Shown in pieces: positions 1-14,173 of a stretch of DNA of 64,000 nucleotides; the first letter of the stretch is position 1, and each line of letters starts with the position of its first letter. Origin of the DNA: Bacteroidales bacterium. Lineage in GTDB: Bacteria; Bacteroidota; Bacteroidia; Bacteroidales; UBA932. The DNA lies in assembly GCA_017428245.1 (NCBI GenBank), contig JAFRRF010000020.1, positions 6,421 through 70,420 on the forward strand, given 5' to 3'. Below the pieces are notes generated by a model. The model searched no databases. It saw only the letters and a list, made by a program, of their open reading frames with translations, and was not told where the DNA came from. The position numbers were made by a program, and so were the translations under genes.

Positions 1-1311
1 TTCCGGTTCACCGTCTCCCGCGCCATCTACAAGGGCATGCTCAAGTTCCTGGCCTGGATCAATGACTTCAAGTATGTGGTGCAGCCCTTGCCCGTGGACG
101 GCTTCGAAGCGCACCTGGAAGACGGAAACAAGGCTGTCCTGACCTGGACGCCCGTCAAGGACCCGCTCGAAAAGACAGCCGACGCGAGCGGATACATTCT
201 CTATACCCGCCGGGATGACGCAGGCTTCGACAACGGTCGGGCGCTGGAGGAAGCCCGGGCAGAAATCGAAATCGAGCCGGGGCATATCTACAGTTTCAAG
301 GTTACGGCCACAAATGCAGGTGGCGAGAGTTTCCCCAGTGAGATCCTCTCCGTGGGCCTTGTAGCCGGTGATGCGCCGACAGTTATGATTGTCAACAATT
401 TCGACCGTCTCAGCGCGCCCGTAAGCTTTGCATCGGCCGACTCCGCATACGCAGGATTCCTGAACCGGCTCGACGCGGGAGTCCCCTACCTCTACGACAT
501 CTCCTACATCGGCGACCAGCACGAGTTCCGTCGCGCCATCCCCTGGATGGACGACGACAGCGCCGGTTTCGGAGCCTCCGACAGCGACTATGAAACGAAA
601 GCCGTCGCCGGCAACAGTTTCGACTACCCGTCGGTCCACGGAAGGGCCTGGATGGAGGCAGGCCGCAGCTTCGTATCCGCCAGCCGCAGTGCCGTCGAAA
701 GGCGCCGTATCGAACTTAACCGATATCCGGTCGTCGACCTGATCTGCGGCGAGCAGCTCACCACGCAGGTGGGCCGCCGCGGTGCAGGCGCCCTCCGTTA
801 CCACGTATTCCCCGAAGGAATCCGCCGGCAGATCGAAGATCTCACGCGTGTAGGCGGAAATATCCTCGTCTCAGGAGCCTATGTCGGCTCCGACCTGTGG
901 GAACCCGTTTTCGATTTCGAAGTGGACTCCACGCTCAAGGCCGACTATTTCGAACCGGCCAAAAAGTTCGCGCAGGATGTGCTGCACTACCGGTGGATGA
1001 CCAATTCCGCAGCCGTGAAAGGCGTGGTCAAAGGGGAACAGAATCCGCTCGGTCTCACCTGGAAGAGCAGCTATTTCTTCCATACGGAACTCAACGGAGA
1101 CTGTTACGCCGTAGAGGCACCCGACGGACTCAATCCCGTGGGAGAAGGGGCATATACCGTGTTCCGCTATGCAGAAAACAACATCTCGGCCGGTACAGCC
1201 TATGCAGGTCCGTACAAGACGGTGATCCTGGGCTTCCCGGTCGAGACGCTGGACTCGCAGGAGCAGATCGACTGCCTGATCGGCGAAGTCGCCCGCTTCT
1301 TCGGGCATTAG
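1..1311 (+). CDS. FN3-domain secreted protein, C-terminal part (5' end probably outside the window)
   Basis: Frame 1 is open from base 1 up to the listed Met at 37, so the 424-aa ORF is probably the tail of a longer protein. TWTPVKDP...YILYTR...YSFKVTATNAGGES reads like a fibronectin type III repeat. Function not recognised. Confidence 0.55.
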   Translation, partial: FRFTVSRAIYKGMLKFLAWINDFKYVVQPLPVDGFEAHLEDGNKAVLTWTPVKDPLEKTADASGYILYTRRDDAGFDNGRALEEARAEIEIEPGHIYSFKVTATNAGGESFPSEILSVGLVAGDAPTVMIVNNFDRLSAPVSFASADSAYAGFLNRLDAGVPYLYDISYIGDQHEFRRAIPWMDDDSAGFGASDSDYETKAVAGNSFDYPSVHGRAWMEAGRSFVSASRSAVERRRIELNRYPVVDLICGEQLTTQVGRRGAGALRYHVFPEGIRRQIEDLTRVGGNILVSGAYVGSDLWEPVFDFEVDSTLKADYFEPAKKFAQDVLHYRWMTNSAAVKGVVKGEQNPLGLTWKSSYFFHTELNGDCYAVEAPDGLNPVGEGAYTVFRYAENNISAGTAYAGPYKTVILGFPVETLDSQEQIDCLIGEVARFFGH

Positions 1312-1883
1312 AAGTTTCCGAAATCCAACTCCGTAACGCCGGCGACCGACTCCAGTTTGAAGGAAAAGGCGCCGGCGGTTTTTATTTCTACGGTGTGGCT
1401 TCCGGCCGTGGTGTAACTGTGCTTGAGGCCGCTGGAATAGGTTTCTTCCGCACCGTCACCCCAGTTGACCTGCCCGGCCATGCTGCTGCCCGTAAAAGAA
1501 GGAAGGACGAAATCGCCCAACGTGTGCTTGATCACAAGCACCTGGTCGAAGGACGGCAGCTGCGTGACAGTAATGCTGCGGGTAAGATCCCGGCAGGTAA
1601 TCGTTACGGAACCTTTACGGGAAGTGGAACGGTCATTAGCCTGTGCCGTGACAGTAATGTTGGCGTTTCCTTTGTCTCCCGAAGCCGGTGATACCGACAG
1701 CCAGGGATCGGAAGCAGTGGCAGTCCAGGAGTAATTGGTCGTCACGCTGACGGACTTGGTACCTCCCTGGGAAGGGAATTCTACCTTCGTATTGTCGAAA
1801 TCGACGGAAGGATCTTCGCGCTCGCAGGCCATCATCCCCAGCACGGCGGCAAGCGACAGGATCAGTATACGGATCTGTTTCAT
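1308..1883 (-). CDS. Lipoprotein with one BACON domain plus a conserved C-terminal WGDG module
   Basis: Lipobox-like signal peptide (LGMMAC). BACON-like segment: FPSQGGTKSVSVTTNYSWTATASDPWLSVSPASGDKGNANITVTAQAN...GSVTI. The C-terminal part matches the paralog at 3709-4545. Start overlaps the upstream stop (ATGA). Confidence 0.8.
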   Translation of the reverse strand: MKQIRILILSLAAVLGMMACEREDPSVDFDNTKVEFPSQGGTKSVSVTTNYSWTATASDPWLSVSPASGDKGNANITVTAQANDRSTSRKGSVTITCRDLTRSITVTQLPSFDQVLVIKHTLGDFVLPSFTGSSMAGQVNWGDGAEETYSSGLKHSYTTAGSHTVEIKTAGAFSFKLESVAGVTELDFGNF

Positions 1884-3712
1884 TTCATTCCCATTTTAAG
1901 CGTCAAAGTCAACTGTTCATCAAAGCGCTTGAAGGTCAAAGTATAGTTTCCCTTCTTCAAGTCGGTCGTCACGATTTTCATCGCAGTCATCTCGTAAGTC
2001 ACGCAGTCTTTTATGGCTGCACCGGAAGCGTCTTTCAAACTCCAGTCCACCAAATCCTTGGTTTCGATGATGATTTCTCCCGAAGTCTTGTTGAACTGGA
2101 AGGAAGTCACTTCGTCGAGTTTCGTCCCGTCGGTTACGGGAATTTCCGTGGAGAGGCCGGCTTTCGGATCGAAAATCGGTTTTTCCCACACGCCGTCAGG
2201 CCAGTCCTGTGCGCGATACACCAGGCAAAGTCTGTCGCCCGGCAAAGGATACGACTGCATAAAACAGCTGATGGAAGGATACCCCCGGCCACTGCCGGCG
2301 GAGAGCTCGTTGAAGGTATTCACATTGCTCACGAACTCTTTGATCTGTCCCTCCGCATCGCAAAGGACGATGGCATATTCACCCATGAAAGGGCGAAGGC
2401 TGCCGTTGTAAAGGAAGCCGGCCCTGATTTTGAAAGAAGTGTGGGGAACGATTGTCTCATCACACTCGATTCCGTTATAGACGGTTCCGCTGCTGCTGGA
2501 AGTACCGCCCTGGAAATAGAGATATTCCAGCGACTGTCCGCCGTCCCCTTCCTTGGGTTTGAGGCCGAAAATGGCGCCGTGACTGTAGAGATACTTCCTG
2601 CTCTCGGTCGGAGTAAAGGCGGAAAGGGCGTAATAACCGTTGCTTGATCCGCCCCATCCCCAGTTGACGCTGACATTTCCCTGCTCGTCGTATCCGTCGA
2701 CAAGGAAGGCGTGGCCGCCGGTCTCCCGGCGGGCCGAATAAAGGATCGGACGTTCCTGAAGCTCAGCTTTGAGCATATCCAGCCACTGTTCGTCGCCGAA
2801 CAAGTCACGCTTATAATGATAGGCACCGGGGTCGAAGCCGAAATATTCGACGGCACAGCCGGCCATTTTCGGCGTACTGGCGCTCGTGGATTCATCGAAT
2901 TTGGCCTGCACGGCGACACCGCAGTCATACACCAGACGGGCCACAGCCTCACCTTCCTCCTGCGTATAGCCATCACGGTAATCGAACTTGATCTTGTCCC
3001 ACTCGTAAGGGTGTCCCAGGTCAAACCCTTCGATCGTACACTTCGAGCCGTTATCTAGGTCATAACTGTAACTTTCAAGTTTCCCCTCTCCCTTGGGCGG
3101 GAAACCGTAATAACGCATGATCATACCCATTGCCAGAGGCACGCAGCCGATAACGGCGTGAGCATCGCCGACCATCGGGGTCAGGCCGTTGAACGGGGCC
3201 GTCTGCTTCCAGACCGGCGTCACGTGTTTGACGGCCGGTTGAAAATCGCCACCCGCCTTGGTCCGGACGAACAGGGCGTCCCAGGATGCTTTCGCAGCCC
3301 GCTTGTCCACGGCACCCGCCCTGACAAAGGCGACCTGCTGTTCGAGTTCTTCCAGCCAATCAACGAGATTCTCCGGCATATCGGCGCCGGTCCCGAACGA
3401 TTCGTCGAACGAATAAGCCAGCACAGGGCGGCAGTCATCCTCGCCGGCAATAATCACGAAACCGCCGCCTGCACGGTTAAAAATGAAGTAGGCCGGCTGT
3501 TCGTCGCCCGCCTTGGTCAAAGGAGCGTGCGTGAGTTCCACCGCCTCAAGCGGAGCCATCCGGCGGGCGAAATTGCGGTCGTTCTGGAAAAAAGCCTTCG
3601 CCGTTTCCCCGGCCCGGAACGCATCGACCGGATCGGCCAGAACCGGGAATGCAGAGAGCCACGTCAGTAGGAGGCCTGCAAATAAAACTCGTACCCTTTT
3701 CATATGAATCAA
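1880..3712 (-). CDS. C10 family (streptopain-like) cysteine peptidase with N-terminal pro/inhibitor-like region
   Basis: Signal peptide present. Catalytic Cys context is GCVPLAMGMIMRYYGFP and catalytic His context is GGHAFLVDGYDEQGNVSVNWGWGGSSNGYYAL, both typical of peptidase C10. About 200 aa of extra C-terminal sequence. Confidence 0.9.
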   Translation of the reverse strand: MIHMKRVRVLFAGLLLTWLSAFPVLADPVDAFRAGETAKAFFQNDRNFARRMAPLEAVELTHAPLTKAGDEQPAYFIFNRAGGGFVIIAGEDDCRPVLAYSFDESFGTGADMPENLVDWLEELEQQVAFVRAGAVDKRAAKASWDALFVRTKAGGDFQPAVKHVTPVWKQTAPFNGLTPMVGDAHAVIGCVPLAMGMIMRYYGFPPKGEGKLESYSYDLDNGSKCTIEGFDLGHPYEWDKIKFDYRDGYTQEEGEAVARLVYDCGVAVQAKFDESTSASTPKMAGCAVEYFGFDPGAYHYKRDLFGDEQWLDMLKAELQERPILYSARRETGGHAFLVDGYDEQGNVSVNWGWGGSSNGYYALSAFTPTESRKYLYSHGAIFGLKPKEGDGGQSLEYLYFQGGTSSSSGTVYNGIECDETIVPHTSFKIRAGFLYNGSLRPFMGEYAIVLCDAEGQIKEFVSNVNTFNELSAGSGRGYPSISCFMQSYPLPGDRLCLVYRAQDWPDGVWEKPIFDPKAGLSTEIPVTDGTKLDEVTSFQFNKTSGEIIIETKDLVDWSLKDASGAAIKDCVTYEMTAMKIVTTDLKKGNYTLTFKRFDEQLTLTLKMGMK

Positions 3713-4545
3713 AAATCAGAAATATCTATGATGGAAATGCCGCCGATGCCCATCTCGAAGGCGGTGGCGCCAAAGAGATTGAAGGTCACGGTGACATCGG
3801 AAGCCAAATACCTGTGCGACAACGTGGGCTCATAATCCGTCCACGTGCCGTCACCCCAGTGTACTTCCCCGACAACACCGTCGCCGGTGATGAGGGGAAC
3901 GCGGAAAACCAAACAGTTGTGCTTGATCAGCAGCACCTGGGAAAGATAGGGTTTCTGGCGGACCTTATAGGTGAGACTCAAACTGTTGCACGTCACCGTC
4001 ACGGTGCCATCACGGACGATACCGGTATTATTTGCTTCCACGCTGATTTTCAAATTGATATTACCCTTTTTTCCGTACGTCGGCTCAACGATGATCCAGG
4101 AACCGGAGACCTGGGTCATCCAGTCGTGGTTGGCGGAGAGACTCACGGTTGCAGAGCCGCCTTCGCCCGGTATCTCGACGAGCGTCAGGCTTTCGGAAGT
4201 CAGGCTGGTGTCATCTTCCTGGCTCACGGAAATGCTTTTGGTCAAAGTCAGGCAGGTCACCGTCACGCTACCTTTACGAGCCTTCCCCGAACTGTTGGCA
4301 TCGACCGTAATGTTCAGCGAAGCGGTACCTTTCCGGCCAGAGGCCGGAGATACGTGAATCCAGGGATCGGAGGCGGTGGCACTCCAGCCATAATTGGTCG
4401 TCACCCCCACGCTCTGGGATGCGCCTGCGGCCGCGGCTTGAATGGAAGTGGAGCCATCGAACACGATGGAAGGCTCTTCCAGCTGGCAGGAAATCGCAAG
4501 GAGCGCTGCAAAGCCTATCGAAAGAAGCTGTTTCGTCTTCATCAT
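3709..4545 (-). CDS. Lipoprotein with two BACON domains plus a conserved C-terminal WGDG module
   Basis: Lipobox (LLAISC). Two BACON-like repeats: GASQSVGVTTNYGWSATASDPWIHVSPASG... and GGSATVSLSANHDWMTQVSGSWIIVEPTYG.... C-terminal VLLIKH...VHWGDGTWTDYEPTLSHRY is shared with 1308-1883. Confidence 0.8.
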   Translation of the reverse strand: MMKTKQLLSIGFAALLAISCQLEEPSIVFDGSTSIQAAAAGASQSVGVTTNYGWSATASDPWIHVSPASGRKGTASLNITVDANSSGKARKGSVTVTCLTLTKSISVSQEDDTSLTSESLTLVEIPGEGGSATVSLSANHDWMTQVSGSWIIVEPTYGKKGNINLKISVEANNTGIVRDGTVTVTCNSLSLTYKVRQKPYLSQVLLIKHNCLVFRVPLITGDGVVGEVHWGDGTWTDYEPTLSHRYLASDVTVTFNLFGATAFEMGIGGISIIDISDF

Positions 4546-6371
4546 TTTCCCGTTTTAAGCGTGAAGGAATAATAACCCAGTTGAGGTTCGCCTCGGTCCA
4601 GGATGATGGTATAGGTATCCTTGGAGAGCGTGGAAAACGCAATCTCGATGGTCTTGTCGGCTGTCGTGACACCCTGGGCCACAACCGTTCCCGTCGATTT
4701 CTTGACCGACCATTTCACCCGGTCCTTGGTCTTGATCGTACACTTCCCGGCCGTCTTGTCATACCTGAACGTGGTCTCGATCACGAGATACGTGTCGTCG
4801 GCCTGCACGGGGATTTCTTTCACGAGGTCGGGGTTTTCCAGGTAATACAACGGCTCCTTCCATACGCCCTCGGGCCAGTGGTCGCTGCGATAGAAGAGCG
4901 TGATCTTGTCGCCCTCCAACGGGTAACAGGTCATGTTGCAGGGGATATTCCAGAAACTCACGCCTCCCAACGGCTTTAATTCCCCGAACGATCCTTCCTC
5001 GGAAATCCTTTCCACGATATTCCCCTCCCGGTCGGTAAGGGCAAAGAAAAACTTGCCCGCGAAAGCAGTGACTCCGCCGTTCCAGACGTATGCTACGCCC
5101 ATCTTGAATTCCTGGCCCCTGACGGGCGTGGACAGGGCGTACATTCCGTGCCAGTCGTCATCACCATTCATAAAAAGGTACTCCTCGGGCTGGCCACCCT
5201 GTCCCTTGTCGGGGACGAGGCCCAGAACGGTGGTATGCGCGTATTTGAAATGGGAGTTCGCGCCGAGCACGAACGCCGACAGGGCGAAGTAGCCGTTGCT
5301 GCTTCCACCCCAGCCCCAGTTGATGCTGAGGAAGTCCTGATTGTCGTAGCCGTCGACCACGAAACCGTGGCCACTGTCTTCACTGCTTCCCGCATAAAGG
5401 AGCGGATGCTCCTGCAATTCGGTCTTGATCATGGACATCCACTCTTCGTCGGTAAAGTACATCCGCTTGATATGGTTGACATTGGGATCGTAGCCGAAAT
5501 ACTCGATGACGGCTGGAAGCAGATTCCAGAAGTTGGTATCAGTTCCTATCGAGGAGGTATATTTCGCCTTGGCAGCCACACCCACGTCAAACATCAGACG
5601 GGACACGGCCTCCGCCTCCTCCTGCGTATAGCCCTTGGAATAGTCGAGTTTCATCTTGTCCCACTGGTAGGGATAACCCAGGTCGAAGCCTGCGACGCTA
5701 CCCTTCTCGTCCTGATACGCCCAGTCGTAGGACGGAAGAGAGCCGGTGCCCGCAGCAGGATACTTGAAGAACCGCATCACGATGCACATAGCTGTAGGAA
5801 CGCATCCGGTATAACCCCGTTTGCCGCCACTGATCGTCGGACAGTACAGGTTGAAGGGGTCGCCCTGATTGAAAAGCGCCGTCTCGTGTTTCACCTCGGG
5901 TTTGAGGTTGTTTCCAGCCTTGGTGGGATACTGCGCCGACATCCACTGGGACTTGGCCAGGTCAGCGGATTTCTGCGGGACGCCTTGGGCACGGACGACG
6001 GCAACCTGCTCTTCGAAATCGGCAAGATAAGCTTCCAATGCGGGAATTCGCTCCACATCCGCAAAATCATTCTCGTAGGAATAAGCCAGAACCGGCTTGC
6101 AGAGGTCGTCGCCAGCAATGATCACGAAACCGCCGCCTTCCCGGCTGAAGATATGGAAGGCCGACGTCGCATCGCCCGACTTGGTAAGCGGCGCTTCATA
6201 CAGGTTCACGCGGTGGAACGGGGACATCCGCCGGCCGACATTCGGGTCGCTTTGGAAAAAGACGCGCGCCACCTCGCCCGCCCGGGAAGCATCGACCGGG
6301 CCGGCAAAGGCCGGCGCAACGAGGGGCAGGACGAGCAGAACGCTCAGGAAGTAACGGGTATAACGTTTCAT
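4542..6371 (-). CDS. C10 family cysteine peptidase (paralog of 1880-3712)
   Basis: Motifs TGCVPTAMCIVMRFFKYP and SGHGFVVDGYDNQDFLSINWGWGGSSNGYFAL. The N-terminal pro-region aligns with the paralog (FFQSDPNVGRRM... versus FFQNDRNFARRM...). Confidence 0.9.
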   Translation of the reverse strand: MKRYTRYFLSVLLVLPLVAPAFAGPVDASRAGEVARVFFQSDPNVGRRMSPFHRVNLYEAPLTKSGDATSAFHIFSREGGGFVIIAGDDLCKPVLAYSYENDFADVERIPALEAYLADFEEQVAVVRAQGVPQKSADLAKSQWMSAQYPTKAGNNLKPEVKHETALFNQGDPFNLYCPTISGGKRGYTGCVPTAMCIVMRFFKYPAAGTGSLPSYDWAYQDEKGSVAGFDLGYPYQWDKMKLDYSKGYTQEEAEAVSRLMFDVGVAAKAKYTSSIGTDTNFWNLLPAVIEYFGYDPNVNHIKRMYFTDEEWMSMIKTELQEHPLLYAGSSEDSGHGFVVDGYDNQDFLSINWGWGGSSNGYFALSAFVLGANSHFKYAHTTVLGLVPDKGQGGQPEEYLFMNGDDDWHGMYALSTPVRGQEFKMGVAYVWNGGVTAFAGKFFFALTDREGNIVERISEEGSFGELKPLGGVSFWNIPCNMTCYPLEGDKITLFYRSDHWPEGVWKEPLYYLENPDLVKEIPVQADDTYLVIETTFRYDKTAGKCTIKTKDRVKWSVKKSTGTVVAQGVTTADKTIEIAFSTLSKDTYTIILDRGEPQLGYYSFTLKTGK

Positions 6372-6385
6372 CGGATCGGTACAGA

Positions 6386-7990
6386 TTACATGCTTCTGAC
6401 AAAAATTTCAAGTACACGGCCCTTGAGCTCCCGCCACTTACCGGCCACCATGGCGAAGAAACTGTCGGTCTGGTCGTCGAGCAACTGCGCGACCGCCTCT
6501 TCCCTGCCCTCGGCGGGAAGCGCCTTGACTTTCTCCTGGAGCGCGGCATCCTGTTCGAACATCATCCGTTCGAAAAGCACGCGCTGGGGTTCCAGCACTT
6601 TGCGCGTCTTATCCCAGTAGATGGTGGCGATGCGGTTGGTTTCGCGGAAAGCCCAGACAGCCGCCTCGGGCCGGTAGCTGTTCTGGCCGCAGTGTCCCAA
6701 TTCCACAGGCAGCTTCGTAGCTCCGGCATAGATCGGGAAGCGCGGGCTCTGCCCCGGATTGTCGAGCGAGAACCACAGCACGCCGCCCACTTCGTCGGGC
6801 AGCCAGTCGCGGCACTGGGCAATAAAGGAATAGGAGCACTGAATCACGGCAATGGTACGGCGGTTGGTGACGGTGCCGGGGGCGATCTGGTTGAGCATCG
6901 CACGCATATCGGCCGACATCCAGTTGGAGACCGGCGTCACCTCTTCGTCATATTCGGTATAAGTCGAATTCGGATACGGCGGGCTGTTGGGATCCTTGAT
7001 GCGGCGGTGTGCCTTGATTTTCAGGTTCTGTCCCATATCGAGATCCGTCCCTTCGTAGGTCTCGCGGTAGAAGGCCAGGACGCGCTCGGGCGTGACCGGA
7101 ACTTCCGGCTTGACCGAGAACGGGAGTTCTTCATCGTCGAGCGAGAGGCCGAGCGAAGGGGCAAGGGTGCTGAGCACGAACCATTCACGGACCGAGAACG
7201 GCTTGCGGTTGGCGTCGCCCACCACTTTCCAGAACTTCAGCGGGCCCTTGCCATCCCACAGACCCAGAGCCTTGGCCTTCTTCTTCAGGTCTTTGCAGTA
7301 CATAAAATGGTCGGGATCGTTGAAATCGATGGCGCCGATGCGCGAGATGTTGGCGGAAATGCCCACGTGATCGTCGGGAATGCGCTGGGCCGCCCAGATG
7401 GCACCGGGTTCGCCCGGACCGGGACCGTTGATCTCAAACTGCCACACCTCATTGGGATCGGCAACGGTAAGGCACTCACCCCAATCGGCATAACCGTATT
7501 TCTCAGCCATCTCCCCCATCAGGCGGACGGCATCACGGGCATTGTCGCAGTACTCAAGTGCAAGACGGCACAGTTCTTCAATCCAGAACACGCCGTTCCG
7601 GTTGATCAGGTCGCGGTTTCCGTCGTAAGTGGTCTCGCCGATGGCAAGCTGCTTCTCGTTCATACACGGGTAGGCCGTATTGACGAAACGGTAGGTCTGG
7701 GCCTTGGGCGGCACGATGCGGCCCGTCTCATAGACGCCGCGGGGATCCCACGGTTCTTCCTTGTGCAGGACGTTGAAGAAATAGGGTTCCGTCTCGCCCG
7801 GAGCAAAGGTCTTGCGGGGCTCGATGGTGATGAAAGTCCTGTAGTACGAGTCGCAGCAATGGGCGGTCATCACCGACCCGTCGCTGGAGGCCTTCTTGCC
7901 GACCATAATGGAAGTGCAGGCATCGCCGGAAGGGACGGCGCAGAGCAGCAGGGCCGCTGCAGCGACGATACAGTTACTGAGCAGTTTCAT
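6386..7990 (-). CDS. C69 family dipeptidase
   Basis: The signal peptide is followed by the N-terminal nucleophile context DACTSIMVGKKASSDGSVMTAHCCDS, typical of peptidase C69. Confidence 0.85.
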   Translation of the reverse strand: MKLLSNCIVAAAALLLCAVPSGDACTSIMVGKKASSDGSVMTAHCCDSYYRTFITIEPRKTFAPGETEPYFFNVLHKEEPWDPRGVYETGRIVPPKAQTYRFVNTAYPCMNEKQLAIGETTYDGNRDLINRNGVFWIEELCRLALEYCDNARDAVRLMGEMAEKYGYADWGECLTVADPNEVWQFEINGPGPGEPGAIWAAQRIPDDHVGISANISRIGAIDFNDPDHFMYCKDLKKKAKALGLWDGKGPLKFWKVVGDANRKPFSVREWFVLSTLAPSLGLSLDDEELPFSVKPEVPVTPERVLAFYRETYEGTDLDMGQNLKIKAHRRIKDPNSPPYPNSTYTEYDEEVTPVSNWMSADMRAMLNQIAPGTVTNRRTIAVIQCSYSFIAQCRDWLPDEVGGVLWFSLDNPGQSPRFPIYAGATKLPVELGHCGQNSYRPEAAVWAFRETNRIATIYWDKTRKVLEPQRVLFERMMFEQDAALQEKVKALPAEGREEAVAQLLDDQTDSFFAMVAGKWRELKGRVLEIFVRSM

Positions 7991-9416
7991 TTTGCGGTAG
8001 TTTATGGATCTTGATATTGAAGGCAGCGTAAGCGATGGCGATCAGCGGCGTGATGAAGCAGAAGATCGCGAAAGGGAAATAGGCCATGGTGGCTACGCCG
8101 AGCACGCTCGACTGAACCACGGCACAGGTATTCCAGGGCACCAGCACGGAACTCACCGTGCCGGAATCCTCCAGCGTACGGCTGAGCACCTCCGGTGCCA
8201 GGCCGAAGCGCCTGTAGGCGGAGCGGAACATATTGCCCGGCAGCAGGATGGCCATGAACTGGTCGGAGAGCGTGAGGTTGCAGAAGACGCAGCTCAGCAC
8301 GGTGGCCGTAACCAGGCCACCCTGGCGGCGAACCCGGGAGAGGATAGCCCCGGTGATGGTCTCCACCATACCGCAGGCTGAGAGGCAACCGCCGAAGAGC
8401 ATCACGGCGATGATGATCCAGACGGTGTTGATCATGCCGCCCATCCCGTGGGTCGAGGCCAGGCGTGTGATGAGGGGATCGGAGGTCGTGATGTCGACGT
8501 TGGTCGACATCATCTGCATCAGCGATCCGAAGAACCGGCGCCAGCCGGTCACGTCAGCCCCCACGATCTGGTCGATGATCTGCGGCTGGGCGAAGAAGGC
8601 CAGGATGCCGCCCGCAAGCGCCGAAAGGAACAGCGTCACCATCGGCGGCACTTTTTTGAAAATCATCAGAATCGTCAGGACGGGAACGAGCAGGTACCAG
8701 CCGGAGATGTGGAAGGTCTCCTGCAGGACCGCCATCTGGCGGCCGATCTCGACTTCCGACGTGACGGGAACCACGAAGCCCACGATGCCGTACACCGCCA
8801 GACAGATGACGAGCGCCGGCAAGGTGGTCAACAAGGTATAGCGGACGTGCGTATACAGGTTCACGCCGGCGATGGATGCCGACAGGTTGGTCGTATCGCT
8901 CAGGGGTGATACCTTGTCGCCCAGGTAAGCGCCGGAAATGATGGCACCGGCCAGCCACCCCGAAGGAATGCCGATGAAAGTGCCTGCGCCGAAGAGCGCC
9001 ACGCCGATGGTGCCCACTGTCGTCCAGGAACTGCCTGCCAGCAGCGACACCAGCGCGCACAGCAGGAAAGCCAGCACGATGAAAATCTTCGGATGGATCA
9101 GTTTCAGGCCGTAGTAGATCATCGTCGGCACGATGCCCGAAAGCATCCAGGTGGCCGTCAGCGCCCCGATGGAGAGCAGGATGATGATGGCGGAGCTGGT
9201 GTTGCCCAGATTCTCCCCTACCTTTTCCTCGAAGGTGCGCCAAGGCACCTTGAGGCCATATAGGCCGATGAGGCAGGTCAGGACGGCCGAGGCAAAGATG
9301 GCGATCTGGGAAGGGCCGCCGGTGAGCTCGTCCCCGAAAATGAACACCCCGACCATCAGCAGGACGATCAGGAACAGCACGGGTACGAGCGACAGAAGGA
9401 GTCCGGGCTTCTTCAT
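7974..9416 (-). CDS. nhaC: Na+/H+ antiporter, NhaC family
   Basis: Polytopic membrane protein. The N-terminus MKKPGLLLSLVPVLFLIVLL...GDELTGGPSQIAIF and overall layout resemble NhaC. Its 3' end overlaps the start of the C69 gene by 17 nt. Confidence 0.75.
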   Translation of the reverse strand: MKKPGLLLSLVPVLFLIVLLMVGVFIFGDELTGGPSQIAIFASAVLTCLIGLYGLKVPWRTFEEKVGENLGNTSSAIIILLSIGALTATWMLSGIVPTMIYYGLKLIHPKIFIVLAFLLCALVSLLAGSSWTTVGTIGVALFGAGTFIGIPSGWLAGAIISGAYLGDKVSPLSDTTNLSASIAGVNLYTHVRYTLLTTLPALVICLAVYGIVGFVVPVTSEVEIGRQMAVLQETFHISGWYLLVPVLTILMIFKKVPPMVTLFLSALAGGILAFFAQPQIIDQIVGADVTGWRRFFGSLMQMMSTNVDITTSDPLITRLASTHGMGGMINTVWIIIAVMLFGGCLSACGMVETITGAILSRVRRQGGLVTATVLSCVFCNLTLSDQFMAILLPGNMFRSAYRRFGLAPEVLSRTLEDSGTVSSVLVPWNTCAVVQSSVLGVATMAYFPFAIFCFITPLIAIAYAAFNIKIHKLPQNETAQ

Positions 9417-9420
9417 GGCG

Positions 9421-10368
9421 TTACAGCATTTTCTTCTTGCGGAAGATCAGGAACACCGCCAGCACGATCAGGACCATGCCCGCCAGAATGGCCACCATGT
9501 CCCAGTTCCCTCCCAACAGCGGCAACTGGATGTTCATACCGTAGATGCTGGCAATCAGAGTAGGCGGCATCAGCAGCAGCGACACCATCGTGAAGATCTT
9601 CATGATCTTGTTCTGCTCCAGGTCAATCAGACCGAGAACGGTGTTCTGCAAGTATTCCAGACGCTCGAAACTGAAGTCAGTGTGATTGATAAGCGACGAG
9701 ATATCTTTCAGGAGGATGCCCAGCTTGCCGTTGATCACGTCGGGCGTCTTGTCGCTGCGCAGGATGCTCGAAATCATCCGCTGCTTGTCGACGATATTCT
9801 CGCGCACCAGCATCGTGTTCTCCTGCAGCTGGTTGATATCGAGGAGGAATTCCTCGTTTACGTCTTCACCCAGGCTCACACGCTTGCTGTACTGCCCGAT
9901 CTCCTTCGACATCAGCTCGATCATGTCGGCGTCCAGGTCAACCCGGTTTTCCAAGATGCCCACCAGCACGTGGAATCCCGTGGGATACAAACGTGAATTG
10001 AACAGGATACGACGCTGGATGTCGGTAAAACTGCGCAGAGGTACCTGGCGGATGGATGTAATGGTATGGCCGGTCAACACGAAGGAGACGCTCTCCATCG
10101 TGTAATTCTCTGCACTGGGAATCAAAAAGTTCGTGTTGGCAAAGATGGCGTCGAGCGTCTCGCTGTAGCGCGATGAACTCTCGATTTCCTCAGCCTGCGC
10201 CCGGCTCTGCAGGGTCGTGTGAAGGAACAGCTCCACCGCACGTTTCTCTTCCCCCGTCGGGCTGAAAAGGTCGAGCCAGAGCGCGTCTTCGCGAGAAATC
10301 TTCTTCAGGATTCCGATCGATTCGGAAACTTCCGCCTGTCCGTTAAGATTGTAAAAGATTTTGATCAT
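9421..10368 (-). CDS. corA: CorA family magnesium/cobalt transporter
   Basis: YGMN signature (ASIYGMNIQLP) before the last TM helix. I place the start at the internal ATG (MIKIFYNLNG, 10368), not the listed 10419, which abuts the mqnA stop. Confidence 0.8.
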   Translation of the reverse strand: MIKIFYNLNGQAEVSESIGILKKISREDALWLDLFSPTGEEKRAVELFLHTTLQSRAQAEEIESSSRYSETLDAIFANTNFLIPSAENYTMESVSFVLTGHTITSIRQVPLRSFTDIQRRILFNSRLYPTGFHVLVGILENRVDLDADMIELMSKEIGQYSKRVSLGEDVNEEFLLDINQLQENTMLVRENIVDKQRMISSILRSDKTPDVINGKLGILLKDISSLINHTDFSFERLEYLQNTVLGLIDLEQNKIMKIFTMVSLLLMPPTLIASIYGMNIQLPLLGGNWDMVAILAGMVLIVLAVFLIFRKKKML

Positions 10369-10419
10369 TTTCCTCGGGTTTAGTGTGTTATCACTCCGTG
10401 AAGCGGCAAGGGCCGGCAA

Positions 10420-11190
10420 TCACAGCACACATTCTCGAGGGGTCAGTTTCTCCAGGGCGACCCGCCAGAACTCGGTCAGGCCGGCGCGCTTCTCGCTGTC
10501 GAACGGGAAGGAGATATTATCCCGCAGATAAGTGCAGGCATAATCCCTGGGAAACTGATGATCATATTTTTCGACGGCCTCGGGAATATGGCGGATCCCA
10601 TATTCGAGGGCCTGGTTGAACGATTCGATGAAACGGGAATCCAGCGGCTTGTTCGCCGTCCATGCAGCGAAGACAAACGGCAGATGCTTGACGGAAATCC
10701 ACTCTTCCGCCATATCGTACACAAAGGTGAAATCCGCAGCGTGGAGCAGGGCCTTGTCGCCGATCAGCAGATAGCACTGCGACGGATCCAGCGGCTCACG
10801 GGTGAAATCGAAGGGTACGAAGCGCGGAGCAATGTGCCATTTCTCGCGGCAGAGCCAGCGCAGCAGCAGCACGGACGTGCGGCTGTCCACATCGAGCCGG
10901 ATCTCTTTCACCTCCCGGATCGGGCGTCCGGAACAGGCCAGCACGCTGGCCACCTTTCCGGTCGCTCCGATGCAGAAATCGGAAACGATATGGGGATCCT
11001 TCAGCGAAGGAATCACCGCCACGGGAGTGATGCCGACATCCGCCTTGTCTTCCAAAAGCATACGGGCGGATTCGGCTGGCGTACAGAACTGCATGGCGAT
11101 CGTTCCGGGGGCCATCCTGGCCTCCAGCCCGTAAATAAACGGGATCGTGTTCAGATAGTTGATCGCAGCAATTCTTACCATATCTTGCAA
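10420..11190 (-). CDS. mqnA: Menaquinone (futalosine pathway) MqnA-like chorismate dehydratase
   Basis: N-terminus VRIAAINYLNTIPFIYGLE and a length of about 255 aa are typical of the MqnA/MqnD periplasmic-binding-fold family. Confidence 0.65.
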   Translation of the reverse strand: MQDMVRIAAINYLNTIPFIYGLEARMAPGTIAMQFCTPAESARMLLEDKADVGITPVAVIPSLKDPHIVSDFCIGATGKVASVLACSGRPIREVKEIRLDVDSRTSVLLLRWLCREKWHIAPRFVPFDFTREPLDPSQCYLLIGDKALLHAADFTFVYDMAEEWISVKHLPFVFAAWTANKPLDSRFIESFNQALEYGIRHIPEAVEKYDHQFPRDYACTYLRDNISFPFDSEKRAGLTEFWRVALEKLTPRECVL

Positions 11191-11206
11191 AGTTACGAAT
11201 TATTTT

Positions 11207-12736
11207 TTATTCAGCGTGCTTACGCACCCGGAAAAGCCACATACCGATGAAGGTAAGCAGTCCGTTGACTATCAACAGCGTAAATCCCAGATCGAAACCG
11301 AGGTAGCGTTTGCTCAGCAGATTGAAGACCAGGCAGAGCACCGGCGCCGCCACGGCGATCCACGGCGTAGCCCCGTCGCGCACCCGGGTTTTGGTCAGGA
11401 TGCCGAAGAAGAACATGCCCAACAACGGGCCATAAGTGTAAGAAGCCAGTTTATAGACCAGGTTCACCACCGCATCGCTGCTGACGATGAAAAGCACCAC
11501 GATGATGATCAAGAACAGAAAGGCCACGCCCGCGTGGACCTTTTTGCGGACCGTCTCCTTGCGGGCTTCCGTCAAATCGCTGCGGCCGTTGAAGTTCAGG
11601 TAATCCACACAGAACGAAGTGGTCAGCGAGGTCATCGCGGCGCCCGCACTCGGGTAGGAAGCGGAAATCAGGCCGATCAGGAAGAAAATGCCCGCCCCCA
11701 CGCCGAAGTACTGGCTGGCGATGGTCGGGAACAGTTCGTCGGTCTTGGTGATGCCCAGCGCTTCAAAGCCGCCCAGACTCTGGGCATACACGCACAGCAA
11801 CGCCCCCATAAGCACGAAGAAGAAATTTACTACCACGATGATGACCGAAGTCGTATACATGTTTTTCTGCGCCGCCTTGATATCCTTGCAGGCCAGATTT
11901 TTCTGCATCATCGCCTGGTCGAGGCCCGTCATCGCAATGGTCACGAAGATACCCGATATGAATTGCTTGACCGCATTGGTGCCGTGGCTCCAGTCCCAGT
12001 CGAACCAGCTCGTGAAAGAATGTCCGTATCCCACCGTGCCGGCATTCTCGTTGATGGTTTCTCCCACAACGGAGAACATTTGGCCGAAACTCCAGCCCAT
12101 ATTTTTGCAGATGTAGTAGATGGTCAGCCCGACGGCCAGCAACATAAAGGTAGTCTGCAGCACGTCGGTCCAGATAATGGTCTTCACGCCGCCCTTATAC
12201 GTGTACAGATAGAGCAGGACCAGGAATACGGCCGTGATGATGGTGAACAGCAACACGGGGGACACCGAGGCCGAAAGGCTGCGGGGCATGAAGGCGAAGA
12301 ACACCACGATGACCACGAACACGCGGACGGCGGCGCCCAATACGCGGGACACCATAAACACGGTCGTGCCCGTCTTGTGGGATTTCGGTCCGAAACGCTC
12401 GCCCAGATACGTATAGATCGAGGTCAGGTTCATCTTGTAATAGAGCGGCAACAGCACCTTGGCGATGATGATATAGCCCCCTACAAACCCCAGCACAAGC
12501 GGCATATAAAAGAAGTTCTGCGCCCATACGTTGCCGGGAACCGAGATAAAGGTCACGCCGGAAATCGACGCGCCGATCATACCATAGGCCACTACGGGCC
12601 AGGGTGCTTTACGGTCGCCCGAGAAAAAGGAATTGGTGCCGGCCTTGCGCCCCGTCAGCCAGGAAATCAGGAACAGGAGCGCGGTATATGCCGCAAAAGC
12701 GGCCAGAAACCATACGAAAGGAAAATCGTGTCTCAT
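11207..12736 (-). CDS. Sodium:solute symporter (SSS) family transporter
   Basis: About 13 hydrophobic segments. GDRKAPWPVVAYGMIGASISGVTFISVPG is typical of the SSS N-terminal region. Confidence 0.8.
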   Translation of the reverse strand: MRHDFPFVWFLAAFAAYTALLFLISWLTGRKAGTNSFFSGDRKAPWPVVAYGMIGASISGVTFISVPGNVWAQNFFYMPLVLGFVGGYIIIAKVLLPLYYKMNLTSIYTYLGERFGPKSHKTGTTVFMVSRVLGAAVRVFVVIVVFFAFMPRSLSASVSPVLLFTIITAVFLVLLYLYTYKGGVKTIIWTDVLQTTFMLLAVGLTIYYICKNMGWSFGQMFSVVGETINENAGTVGYGHSFTSWFDWDWSHGTNAVKQFISGIFVTIAMTGLDQAMMQKNLACKDIKAAQKNMYTTSVIIVVVNFFFVLMGALLCVYAQSLGGFEALGITKTDELFPTIASQYFGVGAGIFFLIGLISASYPSAGAAMTSLTTSFCVDYLNFNGRSDLTEARKETVRKKVHAGVAFLFLIIIVVLFIVSSDAVVNLVYKLASYTYGPLLGMFFFGILTKTRVRDGATPWIAVAAPVLCLVFNLLSKRYLGFDLGFTLLIVNGLLTFIGMWLFRVRKHAE

Positions 12737-12742
12737 ATCGAG

Positions 12743-13357
12743 CTAGGGTTTGAAAAGTTGGCGGTTGGCGATCGAACGGCCCAAAGTCAGTTCGTCGGCA
12801 TATTCCAGGTCGTCTCCGAAGCCCACGCCGCGTGCGATGGCCGTGACCTTCACCGGGAAACGGGAAATCTGTTTGTACAGGAAGTAGGCTGTGGTCTCCC
12901 CTTCCATGCTGGTGCTGAGCGCCAATACCACTTCAGAGATCTCCCCTTTCTCAAGCCGTCCGCTCAATTCGCGGATGCGAAGGTCTCCAGGACCTACGCC
13001 GTCGATCGGAGAAATGATGCCGCCCAGGATGTGGTAGAGGCCGTTGTACTGTCCGGTGTTTTCGATGCTCAGCACGTCGCGCAGGCTTTCGACCACGCAT
13101 ACGACGCTCCGGTCGCGATGCGGGTCACCACAGACAGGGCAGGTATCGTCGTCGGAGATCATCCCGCAGTCAGGACAGGTACGGATGTCGCGCTTGAGGC
13201 GCGTCAGGGCGCCGGCAAACTGGTCCACGTTCTCGCGCGGCTGGCCCAACAGATGAAGGGCCAGTCGAAGGGCGGTACGACGGCCTACCCCGGGCAGCGA
13301 GGAGAGCTGGTCGACGGCCTCTTCCAGCAAGGCGGAGGAATAGTTGCGGCGGAACAT
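12743..13357 (-). CDS. recR: Recombination protein RecR
   Basis: Helix-hairpin-helix LPGVGRRTALRLA, zinc finger CPDCGMISDDDTCPVCGD, and a Toprim region VCVVESLRDVLSIE. Confidence 0.95.
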   Translation of the reverse strand: MFRRNYSSALLEEAVDQLSSLPGVGRRTALRLALHLLGQPRENVDQFAGALTRLKRDIRTCPDCGMISDDDTCPVCGDPHRDRSVVCVVESLRDVLSIENTGQYNGLYHILGGIISPIDGVGPGDLRIRELSGRLEKGEISEVVLALSTSMEGETTAYFLYKQISRFPVKVTAIARGVGFGDDLEYADELTLGRSIANRQLFKP

Positions 13358-13360
13358 CGC

Positions 13361-14173
13361 TTATTTTTTGGAGAGATAGGCATCGACGGCGCTGCGCACC
13401 GAACCGTAATGGAGCAGCATTGCCCGGGCCTCGCCGTAATCTTCGATGCCGGTCTCATCCATGATCATCTTCGTGCCGCGATCCACCAGTTTCTTGTTGG
13501 TAAGCTGCATATCCACCATCTTGTTGCCTTTGACGTGGCCCAGGCGGATCATCACGGAGGTGGAAATCATATTGAGGATGAGTTTCTGGGCGGTGCCCGA
13601 CTTCATGCGGGTGCTGCCGGTCACGAATTCGGGGCCGACCACGGCCACGATCGGAACTTCAGCGGCTGCGGCCACGGGGGCGTCGGGGTTGCAGGTGATG
13701 CAGCCCGTCAGCAGGCCGCGCTTGCGCGCCTCTTCGATGGCACCGATCACATAGGGCGTAGTGCCGGAGGCGGCGATGCCGACCACAGTGTCATCGGTCG
13801 TGGGCCCGAATGCTTCGATGTCTTTCCATCCCTGGGACTTGTTGTCCTCGGCGCCTTCGGCGGCGCGGCGGATGGCACTGTCGCCACCGGCCATCATACC
13901 GATGAACAGGTCGTAGGGAGCGCCGTAGGTCGGCGGGATTTCGGATGCGTCGAGGATTCCGAGCCGGCCACTGGTGCCGGCGCCCACATAGAACACCCGG
14001 CCGCCCCGCTTCACGCGCGGCACGATGCCGTCGACCAGTTTCTCAATCTGCGGGATACAGCCTGCCACCACTTCGGGCACGTGCCGGTCCTCGCGGTTCA
14101 TGCCTTCCAGCAATTCCCGCGTCGTCATCTTGTCGAGATTCGAGTAGTTCGAGCTCTGTTCAGTAACTTTCAT
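13361..14173 (-). CDS. murQ: N-acetylmuramic acid 6-phosphate etherase
   Basis: SIS-domain protein with the MurQ-like N-terminus (NLDKMTTRELLEGMNRED) and GAGTSGRLGILDASE. Confidence 0.9.
   Translation of the reverse strand: MKVTEQSSNYSNLDKMTTRELLEGMNREDRHVPEVVAGCIPQIEKLVDGIVPRVKRGGRVFYVGAGTSGRLGILDASEIPPTYGAPYDLFIGMMAGGDSAIRRAAEGAEDNKSQGWKDIEAFGPTTDDTVVGIAASGTTPYVIGAIEEARKRGLLTGCITCNPDAPVAAAAEVPIVAVVGPEFVTGSTRMKSGTAQKLILNMISTSVMIRLGHVKGNKMVDMQLTNKKLVDRGTKMIMDETGIEDYGEARAMLLHYGSVRSAVDAYLSKK

Follow-up and report, generated by a model that had tools for sequence, protein, structure and literature searches.

We report that the four-gene locus at positions 1308–6371, on the minus strand of a 64 000-nt stretch of a Bacteroidales genome (assembly GCA_017428245.1, contig JAFRRF010000020.1; hereafter the window), consists of two C10 (streptopain-family) cysteine protease genes, each paired with a gene for a lipoprotein that ends in the same small module. 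Comparison of sequences across related genomes strongly supports a dedicated pairing of lipoprotein and protease, and makes it very probable that both proteins act together. For the form this partnership takes, we favor, at a probability of roughly 45%, a lipoprotein built as anchor, stalk and dock that would keep the C10 protease, which has no lipid of its own, at the outer membrane, as zymogen or as enzyme, through a binding contact that we infer.

Pfam search of the four open reading frames (ORFs) gave the order C10 protease, lipoprotein with two BACON domains, C10 protease, lipoprotein with one BACON domain, in agreement with an earlier note made from the sequence of the window without database searches. 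The first protease, C10_A (4542–6371, minus strand as are all four genes, 609 aa), is a streptopain-family cysteine protease zymogen, with the 278-aa lipoprotein BAC_B (3709–4545) as its predicted cognate partner. The second, C10_C (1880–3703 when counted from an ATG, 607 aa), would likewise have the 191-aa lipoprotein BAC_D (1308–1883) as its cognate partner. The proteases are indeed paralogs, as the same note had proposed, with 44% identity over their full length, and the C-terminal module that it saw in both lipoproteins is also borne out, BAC_B and BAC_D being 38% identical across the last BACON and tail; their first BACON domains align at 50% identity.

This C-terminal region, of ∼83 aa, we call the WGDG module; its consensus is QxLxIKH...P..TG....V.WGDG..E.Y...L.H.Y...G.HTV.I......F...S..GVTEIDF..F. 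To follow it into other genomes we used whole-genome profile searches. Single-protein searches of the genome collection with BAC_D and C10_A returned nothing; one alignment (A1) had no stretch conserved enough for scanning, a word-index protein search with the module found 15 close relatives only, and an exhaustive representative search with another profile (A3) was unusable for a family count because giant multi-PKD proteins, matching the module core only, overwhelmed its results. Of 37 genomes from the genus of the window, 20 contained the module; with a broader profile it was retrieved from 12 of the 37 genera sampled within the family, with strong C-terminal matches in five genera besides that of the window, while the profile search for the module in a 200-genome sample of the order gave weak partial PKD-like matches only.

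We took 78 loci and mapped their ORFs with hidden Markov models for C10, BACON and the module. The module ends 69 ORFs, from 34 genomes and six genera of one uncultured rumen/gut Bacteroidales family, and in 65 of these a C10 gene on the same strand is no more than 60 nt away; the co-occurrence that the earlier note had proposed to check by surveying C10 neighborhoods is thus kept at 65 of 69 loci. The other four belong to two three-gene operons (L018 and L027), a contig end (L035) and a locus in which a fragmented partner follows three C10 genes in tandem (L078), and are consistent with the pairing or uninformative. Partners lie downstream of the C10 gene in 46 loci and upstream in 19, and 16 junctions are 4-nt overlaps. 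The order of protease followed by lipoprotein, put forward from the window, therefore holds for the 46 but not for the 19, which include two other loci of the same genome: there, tblastn and ORF maps located module-ending lipoproteins on contigs C26 and C48, each immediately upstream of a ∼610-aa C10 gene. This genome holds six C10 genes, four of which adjoin all four of its WGDG-module genes, an arrangement far beyond chance. The ThrRS gene of the window comes closest, at 94%, to metagenome-assembled genomes of uncultured Bacteroidales, among them RUG12415 of the RUG series, and has 75–79% identity to records under the names Rikenellaceae, Alistipes and Candidatus Cryptobacteroides. Weak internal matches to the module in other genera (L066, L067 and L069) had no C10 neighbor, and we took them as ordinary PKD-like domains.

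Protease and partner are complementary in lipidation. A lipobox Cys is present in all 65 partners and absent from 60 of 64 partnered C10 proteases, while five of the six short (410–500 aa) unpartnered C10 proteases from the same genomes are lipoproteins. C10_A and C10_C themselves carry a signal-peptidase-I (SPI)-type signal without lipobox. In the partners the lipobox Cys is usually followed by an acidic motif (e.g. CEREDP, CQLEEP, CQKEEP and CRPELD), with a mean of 2.1 Asp/Glu among the seven residues after the Cys in the 65 partners. A negatively charged motif behind the lipobox Cys acts in Bacteroides as a lipoprotein export signal, sending lipoproteins to the surface and to vesicles (bioRxiv 10.64898/2026.10.02.756314). 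The acidic motif of the partners resembles this signal, which predicts a surface position for them.

The two families have also diversified together. When 85 C10 proteins were placed in a maximum-likelihood tree, well-supported clades corresponded to particular partner types and gene orders, with 21 label changes as compared to a mean of 53 when labels are shuffled. In GCA_001603505.1, which has a tandem, the first protease clusters with C10_A and the second with C10_C, together with single-copy orthologs; hence the duplication predates these species. The nearest relatives of the BAC_B and BAC_D modules are, in turn, the partners of the nearest relatives of C10_A and C10_C, so that A–B and C–D are each conserved pairs. 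Distances between modules are correlated with those between C10 proteins (r = 0.77 overall, 0.79–0.80 for the C-terminal extension of the protease and 0.64–0.70 for its pro and catalytic parts), the higher value for the extension being only suggestive. Within the clade of the window, none of 2000 permutations reached the observed module–C10 correlations.

Partner architecture varies widely around the one constant element, which always occupies the extreme C terminus, farthest from the anchor. The smallest partners, of 117 and 140 aa, are a signal peptide plus the module only; others have one or two BACON domains before it (188–308 aa), two to five (471–861 aa), or ∼270–600 aa of non-BACON sequence (352–694 aa). 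BACON is thus optional and the module invariant. The lipoprotein nature of the partner proposed in the earlier note stands, but BACON is not its hallmark, since the count runs from 0 to 5 and ∼20 partners have none. In BAC_B the lipobox (LAIS|C, followed by QLEEPS) precedes BACON domains at nt 4216–4473 and 3952–4209 and the WGDG module at nt 3712–3954, and in BAC_D the lipobox (GMMA|C, then EREDPS) precedes one BACON at nt 1560–1811 and the module at nt 1311–1556. BACON (PF13004) scores 75.9 bits in BAC_B and 50.1 bits in BAC_D, at a cut-off of 25. The AlphaFold2 model of BAC_D (pLDDT, the predicted local distance difference test, 89.6; 93.8 for the module alone) shows a BACON Ig-like domain followed by a seven-stranded beta module. 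The top Foldseek match for residues ∼25–110 is the BACON of BoGH5A (3zmr; E 1.4e-6, root-mean-square deviation [rmsd] 2.2 Å, 91 columns); in searches with the whole model, matches to the BACON domain and to generic two-Ig-domain proteins prevail.

The module itself matched no Pfam family, with sub-threshold PKD matches only (PKD_4 at 16.9 bits, cut-off 27), and Foldseek of the module alone against the PDB gave nothing significant (best E 0.16), with no PKD domain and no staphostatin among the matches listed. In a profile search, whose alignment to the ColH PKD was confined to positions 30–68, its central ∼40 positions (about 27–68, less than half of the module) match the PKD domains of the clostridial collagenases ColH/ColG (E 1.5e-4; e.g. 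PDB 4jgu), with which it has the motif W-x-(F)-G-D-G ... H-x-Y ... G-x-Y-x-V in common; this core is matched as well by thousands of giant multi-PKD proteins. What is specific to the C10 partners is the flanks (QxLxIKH... and ...SxxGVTEIDFxxF). We read the module as a putative specialized PKD-superfamily derivative with its own flanks. Homology to inhibitors of the staphostatin/Bfi type was rejected, as no staphostatin family was matched at E up to 10 and none appeared among the Foldseek matches listed; against the small lipoproteins that lie beside classical lipoprotein C10 genes in the same genomes, hhalign gave the module a probability below 1%.

The proteases are well-defined members of their family. 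Peptidase_C10 (PF01640) scores 191.1 bits in C10_A and 175.9 bits in C10_C (gathering cut-off 26), and Inhibitor_I69 scores 54.8 and 72 bits, respectively (cut-off 25). Pfam places the I69 pro-domain of C10_A at aa 23–123 and its catalytic domain at aa 167–362. By alignment, the catalytic dyads are Cys190 (nt 5802–5804) and His335 (nt 5367–5369) in C10_A, and Cys187 (nt 3143–3145) and His331 (nt 2711–2713) in C10_C, in contexts (GCVPTAM and GHGFVVDGYD) that match TGCVATAT and GHAFVIDGY of SpeB/interpain A. The closest solved relatives over the catalytic and pro regions are interpain A of Prevotella intermedia (PDB 3bb7/3bba) and SpeB (E 1e-36 to 1e-38), but the solved chains stop short of the ∼240-aa C-terminal extension that follows the catalytic domain in C10_A and C10_C; this extension matched no Pfam family. 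To our knowledge, no partner lipoprotein has been described for interpain A or SpeB. A role for the C-terminal end as a sorting domain of the type IX secretion system (T9SS) was rejected, as Por_Secre_tail matched in none of the C10 proteins; a search of the whole genome for this cargo signal gave one sub-threshold match (24.8 bits), outside the C10 proteins. Since the genome is essentially without T9SS-type cargo, type IX secretion is not the route of these proteases.

Elsewhere in the C10 family, the nature of the neighbor goes with that of the protease. Sister C10 clades pair with ∼415-aa Mfa-like fimbrillin lipoproteins, with an S41 peptidase ahead, or, in another such clade, with a DUF285/leucine-rich-repeat (LRR) lipoprotein, while short lipoprotein C10s have serpin lipoproteins or small lipoproteins as neighbors. 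Recognizable inhibitors thus lie beside lipidated C10s, and proteins of surface-structure type beside non-lipidated C10s of ∼600 aa.

Adjacency, complementary lipidation, partner architecture, the export-type motif, co-diversification, the partners of sister clades and the lack of a T9SS route together lead us to favor the anchor, stalk and dock arrangement. Each C10 gene and the lipoprotein gene after it would form a cognate two-gene unit (A–B and C–D), duplicated in tandem before the present species split. An ordinary signal peptide would direct the protease to Sec for export; the exported form would be a zymogen, blocked by its pro-domain and without a lipid anchor. The partner, through its lipidated Cys and acidic export-type motif, would make up for the missing membrane anchor of the protease, and the stalk would be the variable spacer, of 0 to 5 BACON Ig-like domains or up to ∼600 aa of other sequence; for the BoGH5A BACON, a role as membrane spacer has been proposed (PMC11216935). 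The invariant ∼83-aa C-terminal WGDG module would serve as the dock and bind the protease, probably via its ∼240-aa C-terminal extension, thereby keeping the protease on the outer membrane and derived vesicles at a set distance. Surface exposure of the partner, a docking domain on the protease and the protease's way to the compartment of its partner are parts of this arrangement that we infer. It is a tentative further step, and rather unlikely in full, that a new non-covalent docking pair, made up of the WGDG module and the extension at the C terminus of ∼600-aa C10s, lets Bacteroidales without T9SS display separately secreted enzymes that bear no lipid on outer membrane and vesicles, stalk length (0–5 BACONs or other spacers) setting the distance.

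Several points weigh against this arrangement. Its weakest link is topological: a protease with a Sec/SPI signal is expected to be periplasmic, and a lipoprotein with an export signal to be on the surface, and the model does not explain how they meet. Where genes are known to be coupled to those of C10 proteases, the precedent (Spi and Bfi/Bti) is one of inhibition, and the minimal partners of 117–140 aa match those inhibitors in size. The higher correlation for the C-terminal extension may just reflect its faster evolution, and the signal peptide of the remaining four partnered C10s, out of 64, contains an ambiguous Cys.

The main rival is a membrane-anchored inhibitor or guard, in which the WGDG module would block the active site of prematurely activated protease. 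Its fold would be unrelated to those of Spi, the staphostatins and Bfi/Bti, but its role the same, and each enzyme would be assured of one inhibitor by the coupling of the genes. We consider this rather doubtful, though it has literature precedent in those systems (PMC3462683), both gene orders occur here too, the 16 junctions with 4-nt overlaps suit it, and the 117- and 140-aa partners comprise nothing but a signal peptide and the module. Against it, the module has no likeness to staphostatin families or structures or to the small lipoproteins beside classical C10s, C10_A and C10_C already have an I69 pro-domain, and inhibition does not require long, highly variable stalks. The predicted export signal would, moreover, put the partner in another compartment than a periplasmic zymogen, and the missing lipid anchor of partnered C10s is left unexplained. 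A helper of folding or maturation, needed for folding, activation or export of the zymogen and then released, would fit translational coupling as well, and Thornton et al. raised a missing chaperone as one reason why Bacteroides C10s were not obtained in soluble or active form in E. coli (PMC3462683). It is nonetheless quite improbable, as the partner does not resemble any known chaperone, the PapD-like Foldseek matches have an rmsd of 9–14 Å and reflect generic two-Ig-domain geometry, and neither a lipid anchor nor a long stalk would be expected.

The partner might instead not bind the protease stably at all, its BACON domains or PKD-like module binding a glycoprotein or cell-wall substrate and presenting it to the protease, with the two genes co-regulated through the common substrate only. 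The PKD motif of the ColH/ColG accessory domains in the module core speaks for such a substrate-recruiting or adhesive accessory, as do the adhesin-like LRR and fimbrillin-like lipoproteins that pair with sister C10 clades; BACON, too, was first predicted as a carbohydrate/mucin-binding domain (as cited in PMC11216935). Yet BACON is dispensable, the module was never found away from a C10 gene, and strict one-to-one adjacency with co-diversification exceeds what is expected of a common-substrate accessory, so that we regard this explanation as improbable. That unrelated surface lipoproteins lie beside the protease genes by accident, in a densely packed genome with long co-directional gene runs, is scarcely credible in view of adjacency at 65 of 69 loci, across six genera and many genomic contexts, with partners that co-diversify with the proteases.

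Among described systems, the nearest are Bfp/Bfi of B. fragilis and Btp/Bti of B. thetaiotaomicron, in which C10 proteases are co-transcribed with small staphostatin-like lipoproteins (PMC2873492, PMC3462683). Like the pairs described here, they combine a streptopain-family protease bearing a pro-domain with a linked gene, upstream or downstream, for a small envelope lipoprotein, and form clustered paralogs. The Bfp/Btp proteases are, however, lipoproteins of about 430–480 aa, as compared to the ∼600-aa non-lipoproteins with a C-terminal extension found here, and our partners differ from Bfi/Bti in having no staphostatin-type similarity, a variable stalk and a module with the PKD motif. The suggestion in the earlier note that the lipoprotein is a distinct partner, unlike staphostatin-like Bfi/Bti, is accordingly upheld by the pairing in six genera and by the absence of staphostatin similarity.

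SpeB–Spi and staphopain–staphostatin likewise couple a cysteine protease gene to a dedicated partner gene, and are the precedent for an inhibitor. Spi and the staphostatins are cytoplasmic, Spi resembling the protease pro-domain and the staphostatins being lipocalin-like barrels, whereas our partner lipoprotein is exported and has a predicted fold unrelated to theirs. BoGH5A (PDB 3zmr) likewise starts with a lipoprotein signal and continues with an Ig-like BACON domain, but its spacer is fused to the enzyme, while here spacer lipoprotein and enzyme are separate polypeptides. By analogy only, the surface anchor, spacer and terminal module, which would capture a separately secreted enzyme, recall the anchoring scaffoldins of cellulosomes with their cohesin–dockerin pairs, to which the WGDG module has no sequence or fold relationship. 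Full-text literature search found no paper linking C10 proteases to BACON or PKD-type partner lipoproteins, and public annotation of the partner is limited to “BACON domain-containing protein”. What is new is thus an undescribed partner module, and what is known is a protease with a coupled envelope partner.

Bacteroidales of gut and rumen commonly carry C10 (SpeB-like) proteases, but how these enzymes are handled in the envelope is poorly understood. Attempts to make Bacteroides C10 enzymes in active form have failed (PMC3462683). The constant partner of one large C10 class offers a concrete experimental handle, and co-expression of the pair may give soluble enzyme. A docking device would show how bacteria without type IX secretion fix soluble enzymes to the surface or to vesicles, and a true docking pair would be, in function, a cohesin–dockerin-like system for proteases; an inhibitor would be a new structural class of cysteine-protease inhibitor. 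In either case the WGDG module is a simple sequence marker for annotating C10–partner pairs in metagenomes.

The earlier note had also described ATGA start/stop overlaps at all three junctions of the locus. These are present between C10_A and BAC_B (4542–4545) and between C10_C and BAC_D (1880–1883), but not at 3709–3712, between BAC_B and C10_C, where the plausible starts lie within 3701–3712: a TTG at 3712–3710 overlaps the BAC_B stop (TGA, 3711–3709) as TTGA, and an ATG lies at 3703–3701. From the sequence, the ATG, after a 5-nt spacer from the BAC_B stop, is the more likely start of C10_C and is preferred over the TTG. At the other end of the locus, the BAC_D stop (TAA, minus strand) overlaps the stop (TAG, plus strand) of a Golvesin_C/fn3 gene at window positions 1308–1311, where the plus strand reads TTAG; the two genes are convergent, with no space for a terminator between them.

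Scans for sigma-70 and terminator consensus gave sites that did not exceed the shuffled-sequence level. Across bases 1–14000 of the minus strand, the sole TAnnTTTG box (the Bacteroidetes −7 type) is at 11188–11195, with none in 1–11194. It sits just ahead of an MqnA-like gene, the first of a co-directional run in the order MqnA-like, CorA, NhaC, C69, C10, BAC, C10, BAC. By motif count alone, a single box upstream of the whole run is compatible with a long transcript.

Directly upstream of the locus on the minus strand lie a C69 dipeptidase gene with signal peptide (6386–7990), 14 nt from C10_A, and an NhaC-family transporter gene (7974–9416), which overlaps the C69 start by the 17 nt (7974–7990) given in the earlier note. 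An exact-protein look-up recovered orthologous loci in two arrangements, NhaC, C69, C10, 193-aa partner, and NhaC, C10, partner, C10, partner (GCA_001603505.1). In all 13 orthologous loci of the genus, NhaC is upstream and the slot between it and the convergent Golvesin_C-domain gene holds one or two C10–partner units; C69 is found at only 7 of the 13, and is thus an optional neighbor. The proposal that these genes form a locus leading from secreted protein to dipeptide catabolism finds limited support, NhaC being constant but C69 not, and a tie to peptide catabolism is plausible, if weakly supported. A distant C69 paralog (30% identity) lies directly upstream of another C10–partner pair (L025:6962-8137), a second, independent C69–C10 linkage.

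Further observations concern the wider set of C10 loci. Lipoprotein C10s of 465–478 aa flanked by serpin lipoproteins (PF00079, E 1e-57 to 1e-75) occur at L077:3101-4318 and 5784-6986 and at L088:5193-6497, which looks like a C10–serpin pairing in the same genus. A ∼415-aa Mfa-like lipoprotein precedes a ∼600-aa non-lipidated C10 at L070:8330-11405, in L073, L079, L085 and L089, and at C33:20703-23840 of the genome of the window; in the five L loci a signal-peptide protein of ∼540–550 aa lies further upstream, identified by Pfam as S41/PDZ in L070. Type V pilins require proteolytic maturation, and a pilin–protease link beside these Mfa-like/C10 loci may be worth testing. The three-gene operons (L027:3323-7976 and L018:3119-7841) encode a BACON–WGDG lipoprotein, a 677–680-aa lipoprotein and a C10; the middle protein of L027 has DUF285 and BspA-type LRR domains, and the last WGDG strand (..GVTEIDFSxF) resembles the start of DUF285/BspA-type LRR repeats. 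Tandem arrays of two to three C10–partner units, or of three C10s with one fragmented partner, are found in single genomes at L046:3134-11025, L047:3240-17352 and L078:1965-9375, and one metagenome-assembled genome (G225) carries 17 C10 genes in 1.9 Mb.

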